11,346 bases of DNA from a virus (lineage: Duplodnaviria; Heunggongvirae; Uroviricota; Caudoviricetes): IMG/VR virus record IMGVR_UViG_2896607866_000003, positions 1-11,346 of that record. One strand, 5' to 3'. Position 1 is the first letter of the stretch; every line of letters starts with the position of its first letter. Positions 5,160-5,813 of this stretch are shown here, piece after piece. The notes under the pieces are model-generated. The model was not told where the DNA came from and made no database searches. It saw only the letters and a list, made by a program, of their open reading frames with translations. Both the position numbers and the translations under genes were made by a program.

Positions 5160-5468
5160 TTAAACGAAGCGGATCTGGAGTTTTTTTCCAGTAGCGCGGG
5201 CGAATTTTTTTAGGGTGGCAAATGATGGGCCGCTGATACCTGATGCGAGATTACTTTCCATTCTGGTGATCGCGGTCGCTTTTGTTCCCATTCGCTCGGC
5301 AACTTCAGCCTGAGTTAAGCCAGCTTCTTTGCGTGCTGCCAGCATTTCATCAAGCAGTGCGAATTCGTCAGCGATAGCGTCGTATTCTGCTTTAAAAGCC
5401 GGGTCTTCCATCCATTTGGCTGCCATTTCGTCGTGTGTCATGGTGGGGAGAGTGCGTTTACCAGTCAT
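5160..5468 (-). CDS. HigA-like antitoxin (XRE-family helix-turn-helix protein)
   Basis: 102 aa with an HTH segment (…GLTQAEVAERMGTKATAITRMES…); perfect SD AAGGAGG 6 nt upstream of the ATG on the minus strand; the start overlaps the toxin stop by 11 nt. Confidence 0.8.
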   Translation of the reverse strand: MTGKRTLPTMTHDEMAAKWMEDPAFKAEYDAIADEFALLDEMLAARKEAGLTQAEVAERMGTKATAITRMESNLASGISGPSFATLKKFARATGKKLQIRFV

Positions 5469-5787
5469 GCTTAACCTCCTTCATTCTGGTTTCAGCTTTC
5501 TTGCGTTCGGCTGGCGGTGTTTTCTGCGTTTTCTTTACAAAACTATGCAGCATGATGATGCGTTTCCCTGTCAGAGTGCAGTAAAAAACACGCGCGATCC
5601 CATCGTTGCCTTTAATTCTGAGTTCGAAAAGTCCGTCACCAAAGGCGCTGGTGTGAGGTTCTCCGAGATTGCTGCCATATATCTTCATACGTTCAACGAG
5701 ATGTTGGTATCGGGCACGCATACTCAATGGAAGCCGATCGACTTCCAGCCTTACATCTTCACTGTAGTATTCGATAGTGTAGTTCAT
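5458..5787 (-). CDS. RelE/ParE-superfamily toxin of the Gp49 / HigB-like family
   Basis: MNYTIEYYSEDV…GDGLFELRIKGNDGIARVFYCTLTGKRIIMLHSFVKKTQKTPPAERKKAETRMKEV: the …LHSFVKKTQKTP… C-terminus is characteristic of Gp49-like toxins. Toxin-then-antitoxin order fits a higBA-type module. Start at 5787 (alternative ATG 5799); no clear SD. Confidence 0.75.
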   Translation of the reverse strand: MNYTIEYYSEDVRLEVDRLPLSMRARYQHLVERMKIYGSNLGEPHTSAFGDGLFELRIKGNDGIARVFYCTLTGKRIIMLHSFVKKTQKTPPAERKKAETRMKEVKHDW

Positions 5788-5797
5788 AGGTATCAAC

Positions 5798-5813
5798 ATA
5801 ACAAAATTGTTAT
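5798..5813. promoter_or_regulatory. Perfect palindrome ATAACAA-AA-TTGTTAT at the 5' edge of the toxin gene; candidate operator
   Basis: 16-bp dyad read directly from the sequence, immediately upstream of or overlapping the toxin start; TA operons are commonly autoregulated at such sites. Confidence 0.35.

Follow-up and report, generated by a model that had tools for sequence, protein, structure and literature searches.

A Gp49/HigB-HigA-type toxin-antitoxin cassette with a putative conserved operator in the nin region of a lambdoid prophage

We describe a pair of overlapping genes on the minus strand of a Caudoviricetes sequence (IMG/VR record IMGVR_UViG_2896607866_000003; the whole stretch analysed, 11,346 nucleotides, is referred to here as the window) that very likely constitutes a self-contained type II toxin-antitoxin (TA) operon of the Gp49/HigB-HigA (Tad-Ata-like) type, running antisense to the phage early genes. 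The pair has its own predicted promoter and is carried on a cassette of ~0.72 kb, located in the nin region of a lambdoid prophage that is riddled with IS elements. It is an ordinary two-gene TA module that has already been annotated and that annotation pipelines name correctly. Comparison of homologous loci indicates that a short inverted repeat upstream of the toxin gene is very probably the binding site of the antitoxin, and that the toxin is probably translated from a leaderless mRNA, the antitoxin retaining a strong Shine-Dalgarno (SD) sequence.

Results

The toxin gene (Gp49/HigB-type, RelE superfamily, predicted RNase) occupies positions 5458..5787 of the minus strand including the stop codon (ORF 5787..5461, stop 5460-5458) and encodes 109 amino acids, and the antitoxin gene (higA-like, with an Xre-type helix-turn-helix, HTH) occupies positions 5160..5468 of the same strand (ORF 5468..5163, stop 5162-5160) and encodes 102 amino acids. 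The original prediction had described a toxin-first pair with an 11-nt overlap and a perfect SD for the antitoxin, located on the strand opposite to the surrounding phage genes, and all of this is borne out by the coordinates. The overlap spans positions 5458-5468; the SD, AAGGAGGT, is found on the minus strand at 5481..5474, 6 nt 5' of the antitoxin ATG and within the K-E-V codons of the toxin; and both genes are antisense to ninB (4499-4945), ninE (4915-5118) and two antirepressor genes (6106-6792 and 6861-7589), the identities of which were taken from Pfam. Two further ORFs in this region were considered and ruled out. A 154-aa upstream-extended ORF (start 5922) was discarded as the toxin because the homologues begin at the MNYTI position and because its extension overlaps the c4/isrK RNA region of the other strand, and an 82-aa plus-strand ORF at 5833-6081 was discarded as a gene because it has no Pfam match and is covered by Rfam RNA matches.

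The toxin matches the Gp49 family (PF05973, DUF891) with E 7.4e-26 and 90.5 bits against a cut-off of 23.9, over profile positions 3-90 of 90, and PHROG 2523 matches its full length (2.6e-45). Gp49 is the only Pfam family that the toxin matches at E <= 0.01, and NCBIfam holds no specific model for either protein, every match being below its cut-off (the RelE/ParE match of the toxin scores 21 bits against a cut-off of 62.85). The AF2 model of the toxin, built from an input alignment without the N15 sequence, is confident (pLDDT 94.5) and has the element order E-H-H-E-E-E-E followed by a C-terminal helix at residues 92-108. A Foldseek search with this model places the HigB of 6AF4/6AF3 on top (E 6e-7, TM 0.74-0.76), followed by HigB1 of 7NBU/7AWK (TM about 0.75), HigB2 of 5JAA, RelE, YoeB and YafQ. 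ParE2 and ParE1 rank no higher than 15th (TM 0.39-0.40), which, along with the conserved RNase-type residues described below, led us to reject a ParE-type gyrase poison. Consequently, the expectation of a Gp49/HigB-like toxin with a RelE-type fold, recognisable by profile search and by structure prediction, was confirmed, and the label "HigB" is appropriate in the Gp49/Tad sense. It does not hold in the sense of canonical HigB, which we ruled out in view of the single Pfam family and the sub-threshold RelE/ParE score; Gp49-type toxins in general resemble canonical HigB proteins little (PMC5906591).

Residues E55, R57, R66, F83, K85, Q88 and K89 of the toxin align with E66, R68, R77, F93, K95, Q98 and K99 of M. 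tuberculosis HigB1, which are proposed or mutationally supported as catalytic (PMC9098466), and they show little or no variation among 50 homologues. The equivalents of HigB1 N73 and K58 are not conserved, the toxin having D62 and S47 at these positions. An antitoxin homologue overlaps and follows 83 of the 85 toxin homologues. The pair thus displays several features of Gp49/HigB-HigA membership, namely the Gp49 domain, the RelE-type fold, the active-site residues and the conserved toxin-first overlapping arrangement, and identical proteins in RefSeq already carry the labels RelE/ParE-family toxin and HTH protein. PADLOC found no complete defence-system model matched by the pair. Residues 49-99 of the toxin give a weak, partial match to positions 233-283 of the 293 positions of NsnC (E 8e-10), and the remaining matches are weak HTH matches only; an "Nsn" system was ruled out since the match is partial and the ORF list of the window contains no candidate partner genes beside the pair.

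The antitoxin matches Pfam HTH_3 (3.4e-11), and its best relative in the PDB is 6AF3_B, the HigA partner in the S. pneumoniae HigBA complex (profile E 4e-7); the profile also reaches M. tuberculosis HigA2 (4e-4) and HigA3 (5e-4). The prediction of a HigA-like antitoxin with an XRE HTH is therefore upheld by profile search. The AF2 model (pLDDT 86) consists of five helices, with the recognition helix at approximately residues 62-71 (TKATAITRME). A structural search with this model returned generic Xre/Cro folds only (HipB, C proteins, HicB, HigA2), all with E > 0.01. This search is unable to tell HigA apart from other HTH proteins, and the sequence profile is more informative.

Both genes lie within a mobile block of ~0.72 kb (5132..5850, minus strand) that also occurs in Shigella phage POCJ13, there in another genomic context. 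With positions 5100-6100 as the megablast query, POCJ13 and 75/02 Stx match query positions 33-751 at 92% identity, and the heptamer TATCCGG adjoins both edges of the cassette (5124-5130 and 5847-5853). At the left edge, in the gap separating the convergent ninE and antitoxin stop codons, lies a GC-rich hairpin formed by the inverted repeat GCGCCGCCA gaa TGACGGCGC (5132..5152), which may serve as a weak terminator; it was not among the terminators called by the scan, having no T-run after it on the minus strand. Of 5426 E. coli genomes, 31 contain the cassette, 488 E. coli genomes have the same ninE/ant-promoter junction without it (junction aligned), and the same cassette occurs in other contexts in POCJ13, PhiR5_2 and A34. 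The moron-like arrangement that had been proposed between ninE and the antirepressor genes is accordingly confirmed, with the insertion point lying between ninE and the promoter of the antirepressor genes: the cassette is present or absent at a fixed site, it has its own predicted promoter and its own 3' hairpin, and its orientation is independent of the phage operon. The host prophage is lambda-like, decaying, and heavily degraded by IS elements.

The putative HigA operator, ATAACAAAATTGTTAT, is located at positions 5798-5813 and conforms to the family core TA-N-C-N6-G-N-TA. It had been predicted to be a perfect 16-bp palindrome at the toxin start, and neither detail is correct: the sequence is a 7-2-7 inverted repeat with the arms ATAACAA and TTGTTAT around a non-symmetric AA, and it stops 10 nt short of the toxin ATG, on the upstream side. 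A perfect 16-mer, ATAACAAATTTGTTAT, is found in the relatives POCJ13, PhiR5_2 and E. coli G1/2, and VL40 and FDAARGOS_943 have a weaker version of the dyad, ATAACAAAATCGTTAT. The mismatch found in one arm in the closest relatives, like the imperfect centre in the window, weighs against the operator reading. The accompanying proposal of an autoregulatory site fared better, given that in the comparative analysis the repeat behaves as an operator would with respect to position, covariation and agreement with the recognition helix.

Within the window alone, a single such repeat is unremarkable, as the 1-kb region contains four inverted repeats that are 7 nt or longer and ~0.19 matches to TAAC-N6-GTTA are expected per shuffled window. 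The significance of the repeat comes from homologous loci, in which its position is conserved. The dyad is found at the same position in about 80 such loci from several phyla, with symmetry peaking at -17 relative to the start codon (5.2 of 8 pairs, compared to about 2.1 elsewhere), and the best dyad reaches at least 6/8 pairs in 77 of 81 loci versus 253 of 1620 shuffles. Among 61 loci, the pair -5/+5 is A:T in 35, G:C in 22, T:A in three and mismatched in one, although the operator classes largely follow clades and these counts therefore do not represent independent events. The arm sequence also tracks the antitoxin: residue 63 of the recognition helix is K, Q or R with TAAC (41/43) and T with TAGC (28/28), and residue 66 is N with the TATC operator arm (5/5). 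No second operator-like site was found in the window, including any that would link the antitoxin to the neighbouring antirepressor promoter. In M. tuberculosis, the -10 box of the higBA3 promoter is surrounded by a palindrome that shares the ATAAC-N6-GTTAT core, and HigA3 bound a fragment with the -10 box and the left palindrome arm (PMC7340258).

The dyad overlaps the conserved TGn/-10 element of a predicted sigma-70 promoter (5795..5823, minus strand) that consists of the -35 element TTGAAT (5823..5818), a 17-nt spacer, TGn (5803..5801) and the -10 element TATGTT (5800..5795). The promoter scan did not call a minus-strand promoter here (8 of 12 matches, threshold 9), and the assignment consequently rests on conservation in 61 loci. 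In these loci, counting from the dyad centre, TTG is located at -18..-16, TG at +3/+4, TA at +6/+7 (61/61), T at +11 (59/61) and the start codon at +18. The toxin ATG starts 8 nt after the -10 element (7 nt between), which implies an mRNA that is leaderless or has a 1-nt leader; a leaderless toxin mRNA is probable since the start codon sits at the expected transcription start. On the side of the antitoxin, 57 of 59 homologous loci have an SD-like match of 5 nt or more within the final 50 nt of the toxin gene, compared to 85 of 295 control windows.

We lean, if only somewhat, towards the view that the same layout characterises the whole subfamily, i.e., toxins about 45-100% identical from Proteobacteria, Nitrospirota, Acidobacteriota and Cyanobacteria: 1) the toxin would be translated from a leaderless mRNA starting at an operator-embedded extended -10 element, 2) the antitoxin would be translated from a strong SD located in the conserved K-E-V/I codons of the toxin, and 3) a simple recognition code would relate residue 63 K/Q/R to TAAC, 63 T to TAGC and 66 N to TATC. 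The leaderless layout appears to be a trait of the subfamily rather than of the family because gene 49 of phage N15, whose product is the family namesake and 46% identical to the window toxin, has an ordinary leader with an AGGAGG SD, and a search upstream of it found no ATAAC-N6-GTTAT dyad. No statement of the leaderless-toxin layout or of the recognition code was found in the searchable literature.

Discussion

In the proposed mode of action, the toxin would be a ribosome-dependent mRNA endonuclease kept inactive through direct binding by HigA. A HigA dimer, alone or with the toxin as co-repressor, would bind ATAAC-N6-GTTAT, and since this site overlaps the TGn/-10 element, binding would shut off the operon. 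Transcription would start with the toxin ATG itself or 1 nt ahead of it, so that the toxin would be poorly translated from a leaderless mRNA, while the strong SD inside the 3' end of the toxin gene would allow the antitoxin to be well translated and to remain in excess despite the toxin-first order. The weakest step of this interpretation is the role of the operon, which most likely either persists selfishly or stabilises the prophage segment; phage exclusion would be an alternative.

The best solved relative of both proteins is S. pneumoniae HigBA (6AF3/6AF4), which the toxin matches with E 1.5e-5 alone and 8e-9 by profile and the antitoxin with 1e-3 alone and 4e-7 by profile. The two systems share the toxin-first order and a long C-terminal toxin helix, and S. 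pneumoniae HigB is the top structural match of the window toxin (TM about 0.75). In contrast to the window toxin, it is longer (141-residue chain), with ~20-22% identity in the structural alignment, and it is encoded on a Gram-positive chromosome rather than in a lambdoid prophage. M. tuberculosis HigB1 (TAC toxin, 7NBU/7AWK) has the Gp49-type fold and the aligned E, R, R, F, K, Q and K of the window toxin but also needs a SecB-like chaperone, whereas the window locus has no third gene (ninE is convergent past the hairpin). M. tuberculosis HigB2 and HigB3, which were non-toxic when assayed, lack several of the catalytic residues (PMC9098466) that the window toxin retains. Canonical HigBA systems (Rts1 of Proteus vulgaris, E. 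coli K-12, Vibrio cholerae HigBA1) likewise encode a RelE-superfamily toxin first and an Xre-HTH protein second and have operators overlapping the promoter, but their toxins belong to a different sequence family. In HigBA2 of the A. baumannii plasmid pAB120, a Gp49-domain RNase toxin is encoded first, as in the window, the antitoxin HigA2 represses the operon promoter with the toxin as co-repressor, and no internal antitoxin promoter was found (PMC5906591). That system differs in being plasmid-borne, and its operator and transcript start are undefined in the same study.

A further comparison is provided by phage N15, which is also temperate. Its gp49, which gave PF05973 its name, aligns with the window toxin over residues 15-105, its gp48 is 38% identical to the window antitoxin, and the two are encoded toxin-first as in the window. 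N15 is a linear plasmid prophage for which a stabilising role is obvious, whereas the window prophage is integrated. The N15 and SXT homologues (Tad-Ata modules; Paracoccus pAMI2) are reportedly TA stabilising systems (Dziewit et al. 2007, title as cited in PMC2701414). This last point speaks against the possibility that the same mechanism was selected for anti-phage defence, i.e., for abortive infection or superinfection exclusion by the lysogen, rather than for addiction, as does the lack of a complete PADLOC defence-system model. We consider that role a minority possibility worth keeping in view: the location is typical of a lysogen-expressed moron, the toxin residues 49-99 resemble the C-terminal region of NsnC, and TA systems are increasingly tied to phage defence.

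Two other interpretations depart further from a functional TA operon. The module might be domesticated or decayed, with a Gp49 protein that is non-toxic here and an HTH protein that functions only as a small transcription factor, regulating itself and perhaps further phage targets. Such decay has parallels, as M. tuberculosis HigB2 and HigB3 are both Gp49-type and showed no toxicity in assays (PMC9098466), PhiR5_2 has a toxin start codon ATA instead of ATG next to an intact antitoxin, so that toxin loss does occur in the lineage, and the surrounding prophage is itself heavily IS-degraded. Nevertheless, we regard it as improbable in the present case, where both ORFs are full length, the toxin has all family-invariant residues including those aligned with the HigB1 catalytic set and is 100% identical across three independent E. 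coli genomes, and no further operator-like site pointing to additional targets occurs in the window. The inverted repeat, in turn, might be a chance palindrome or an RNA hairpin in a longer 5' leader, in agreement with its ordinary appearance in the window and with the fact that its arms could pair in RNA if transcription started further upstream. This is the least credible of the alternatives, and we think it highly improbable. The position of the repeat is fixed relative to the conserved -35, TGn and -10 elements and is thus upstream of the likely transcription start; asymmetric arm positions at the pair -3/+3 show no G:U bias (G/T 6 versus A/C 8); the arm sequence follows the recognition helix residues; and a homologous antitoxin binds the corresponding -10 box in M. 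tuberculosis (PMC7340258).

Conclusions

For the window itself the finding carries little weight, being one more prophage-borne type II TA cassette, although the cassette may help to explain the survival of this segment in a prophage that IS elements have otherwise shredded. The comparative data are of broader interest in that they define a putative operator for a large and poorly studied HigBA subfamily and provide a clean case of co-evolution between an operator half-site and an HTH recognition helix, open to residue and base swaps. How the toxin:antitoxin ratio is set in reverse-order TA systems is unknown according to the authors of PMC5906591. A leaderless toxin combined with an SD-driven antitoxin offers a testable explanation for the stoichiometry of toxin-first TA operons and, if true, would represent a conserved, hard-wired answer to how such operons maintain an excess of antitoxin.

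Results

Two mutually overlapping open reading frames (ORFs), sharing 11 nt, occupy the minus strand of the window between 5160 and 5787, namely that of the toxin (5787..5461, stop codon 5460-5458; 109 aa, N-terminus MNYTIEYY) and that of the antitoxin (5468..5163, stop codon 5162-5160; 102 aa). The octamer AAGGAGGT (5481..5474, minus strand) supplies an SD sequence 6 nt ahead of the antitoxin ATG, and no SD-like sequence was found before the toxin ATG in the window. The flanking phage genes are all on the plus strand, opposite to the pair, and include the Pfam-identified NinB (4499-4945), NinE (4915-5118), an ORF6N/P22AR_C antirepressor (6106-6792) and a Rha/KilAC antirepressor (6861-7589). 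The sequence thus agrees with the original prediction of a toxin-first pair with an 11-nt overlap, an SD for the antitoxin and an orientation opposite to its neighbours. RefSeq proteins WP_024258354.1 ("type II toxin-antitoxin system RelE/ParE family toxin") and WP_000147081.1 ("helix-turn-helix domain-containing protein") have the same amino acid sequences as the toxin and antitoxin, respectively, and an antitoxin homologue follows and overlaps the toxin homologue in 83 of 85 toxin-encoding loci.

Gp49 (PF05973) is the sole Pfam family found in the toxin, with the whole profile covered at 7.4e-26. Its only convincing solved sequence relative is S. pneumoniae HigB (6AF3, E 1.5e-5), which rises to 8e-9 with a 50-sequence profile that also reaches M. 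tuberculosis HigB1. The AlphaFold model built on the 50-sequence alignment is confident (pLDDT 94.5, pTM 0.87), and Foldseek places it nearest to the HigB structures 6AF3/6AF4 and HigB1 structures 7NBU/7AWK (TM about 0.75), followed by V. cholerae HigB2, RelE, YoeB and YafQ, with ParE proteins far below. Cryo-EM work proposed a catalytic or essential role for HigB1 residues E66, R68, R77, F93, K95, Q98 and K99 (PMC9098466); these align with E55, R57, R66, F83, K85, Q88 and K89 of the window toxin, each of which is invariant or nearly so across the family. Toxin residues 49-99 are also partially matched by the C-terminal region of the PADLOC profile NsnC (positions 233-283 of 293, E 8e-10), and this candidate defence protein may end in a Gp49/RelE-like domain.

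The antitoxin is an Xre-type HTH protein (Pfam HTH_3, 3.4e-11), best matched among solved structures by the HigA chain of 6AF3, the same complex that contains the toxin's relative; its profile additionally reaches M. tuberculosis HigA2 and HigA3. In the antitoxin model the HTH comes after a helical N-terminal extension, and a structural search with this model returned generic matches. The profile searches and structure prediction yielded a Gp49 toxin with RelE-type relatives and an HTH_3 antitoxin, and the Gp49 match, the HigB-type fold and the 6AF3 HigA relative together support the assignment to Gp49/HigB-like and HigA-like proteins.

The inverted repeat upstream of the toxin, ATAACAAAATTGTTAT (5798-5813), had been described as a perfect 16-bp palindrome at the toxin start; it consists of fully complementary 7-nt arms flanking a central AA, and its toxin-proximal end lies 10 nt upstream of the ATG. 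Judged within this window alone such a repeat is statistically not notable. We compared about 80 homologous loci (toxin identity 43-100%) from Gamma-, Beta- and Deltaproteobacteria, Nitrospirota, Acidobacteriota, Cyanobacteria and other groups. Dyad symmetry is concentrated in one sharp peak, whose centre precedes the toxin start codon by 17 nt (18 in some cases); the mean there is 5.2 complementary pairs out of 8, versus about 2.1 at every other position. Of the 81 loci, 77 have a best dyad with 6 or more of the 8 pairs, compared with 253 of 1620 shuffles. The arms are of the types ATAACA/TGTTAT, ATAGCA/TGCTAT, TTAGCA/TGCTAA and TTATCA/TGATAA. Counting outward from the dyad centre, pair five is A:T at 35 loci, G:C at 22 and T:A at three, with a single mismatched locus, and therefore both arms change together. 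Covarying arms could also be read as an RNA hairpin, in which G:U would be favoured; at the third pair of asymmetric arms, however, G/T (6) and A/C (8) are equally frequent, with no preference for G:U, which argues against a hairpin.

This reading as a putative operator is also consistent with the antitoxin sequences. The half-site class (TAAC, TAGC or TATC, with outer A or T) tracks antitoxin residues 63, 64, 66 and 68, and arm type splits almost perfectly by recognition helix: K, Q or R at residue 63 accompanies TAAC in 41 of 43 loci and T accompanies TAGC in 28 of 28, N at residue 66 accompanies TATC in 5 of 5, and S at residue 68 accompanies TTAGC in 8 of 8 and is present in 4 of 5 TTATC loci, counts that overstate the number of independent events because the classes follow clades. 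Such a pattern is expected if a dimeric HTH repressor has co-evolved with its operator. The M. tuberculosis higBA3 promoter carries AGATATAACCTAGAGGTTATACTG around its -10 box, with an ATAAC-N6-GTTAT core (PMC7340258) that is the same as the core of the window dyad; HigA3 bound a fragment containing this -10 box and the left arm, and a HigA3-DNA crystal structure exists (PMC7340258). In A. baumannii, HigA2 represses the Gp49-type operon that encodes it, and the toxin serves as co-repressor (PMC5906591).

Alignment of 61 loci anchored at the dyad centre revealed a conserved TTG at -18 to -16, a near-invariant T at +3 and invariant G at +4, an invariant TA at +6/+7, and a T at +11 in 59 of 61 loci whose mirror position is unconserved. 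We read these elements as a predicted promoter with a -35 TTGnnn, a 17-nt spacer, a TGn element and a -10 TAnnnT, in which case the putative operator would cover the spacer, TGn and first half of the -10. In the window the predicted elements, all on the minus strand, are TTGAAT (5823..5818), TGT (5803..5801) and TATGTT (5800..5795), and the toxin ATG begins 8 nt after the last. In the most common arrangement the first base of the start codon (ATG or GTG) is at +18, where transcription should initiate. SD matches are distributed with strong asymmetry: ahead of the toxin even a 4-nt match is present in just 1 of 61 loci, whereas 57 of 59 loci have one of at least 5 nt within the final 50 nt of the toxin gene, versus 85 of 295 control windows. 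This second SD is usually encoded by the conserved toxin residues K-E-V/I. From the promoter and start-codon geometry together with this asymmetry, we infer, as the simplest interpretation, a toxin that is leaderless and weakly translated, followed by an SD-driven antitoxin. Gene 49 of phage N15 differs from the window's subfamily in lacking this layout. An Oxalobacter formigenes MAG carries the pair twice on one contig (398-718 and 2089-2409, ~1.7 kb apart), with longer dyads (10-11-nt arms) that precede the extrapolated start by about 28-45 nt, compared with the usual 10-25 nt; by their sequence these copies are exceptions to the predicted leaderless layout.

Immediately beyond the toxin-antitoxin (TA) promoter, a promoter scan found a divergent plus-strand promoter (5833-5862; TTGACG, 18 nt, TATATT), which is predicted to drive an isrK/C4-type RNA region (5856-6053). 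This region contains plus-strand Rfam matches to c4-a1b1 (5856-5908, 50 bits), isrK (5869-5942, 72 bits; terminator end at about 5915-5945) and C4 antisense RNA (5969-6053, 75 bits), and is followed by the ORF6N/P22AR_C antirepressor gene at 6106. The arrangement (5833-6100, plus strand) resembles the P1 immI control unit. No second HigA-type site was found in the window, so nothing ties the TA cassette functionally to the antirepressor unit. In E. coli A34 three tandem isrK plus C4 RNA units (3704-4633) lie beside the TA cassette, inside a RefSeq "ash family protein" CDS; this call is probably spurious, the alternative being that the array forms an unusual immunity region made of repeats.

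The block 5132-5850, closed by a GC-rich hairpin (5132-5152), is 92% identical to one in Shigella phages POCJ13 and 75/02 Stx, where the context is different, and more diverged copies are placed after other genes in PhiR5_2, G1/2 and A34. The PhiR5_2 copy is annotated HigB/HigA, with "HigB" given as a truncated 76 aa; its toxin start (3659-3661) is ATA rather than ATG while antitoxin and operator are intact, and the toxin may be inactivated. The cassette is present in 31 of 5426 complete E. coli genomes, chromosomal every time, and in 488 E. coli genomes the ninE end directly abuts the antirepressor promoter with the cassette absent, in line with the proposed moron-like insertion by ninE and the antirepressor. 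The heptamer TATCCGG adjoins both edges (5124-5130 and 5847-5853), with a third copy inside ninE (5085-5091), which suggests insertion or deletion by short-homology recombination. The right-hand copy is within the antirepressor promoter spacer and the left-hand copy, by comparison with the empty site, within an apparent remnant of that promoter.

Three IS3-family elements (319-1523, 2550-3823 and 7613-8769) interrupt the prophage; one is IS2, with TnpA (276 bits) and TnpB (728 bits) both above cut-off, and closely related E. coli loci have IS600, IS2 and IS1 at similar places. The replicative helicase gene (1517-2200) is cut down to a C-terminal fragment (DnaB profile positions 240-420). After the last IS, plus-strand ORFs of 123, 304, 117 and 169 aa (8933-11346) look, from their translations, like phage tail-fibre or late-region genes; the 123-, 304- and 169-aa ORFs had no NCBIfam match at 1e-5. 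The early region joined almost directly to apparent late genes indicates a large deletion. The prophage is clearly defective, the TA cassette nonetheless intact.

Discussion

Judged from its sequence, the pair is an intact type II TA system of the Gp49/HigB-HigA class that forms a moron within a degraded lambdoid prophage, and the original prediction was essentially right save for the perfect palindrome. Its putative autoregulatory site gains support from the fixed position, the covariation of the arms and the tracking of the recognition helix. The toxin would act as an RNase, the HTH antitoxin would neutralise it and would autorepress the operon at the dyad, a scheme for which homology and comparative evidence give good support. 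In the searchable literature we found no description of the operator code relating half-site class to helix residues and no paper stating a leaderless-toxin layout for the toxin's family. The cassette itself is of low interest because TA systems of this kind have been described before and the existing annotation of the genes is correct. Its candidate biological role would be addiction or phage exclusion, and only the operator code and the subfamily-wide leaderless layout may be new.
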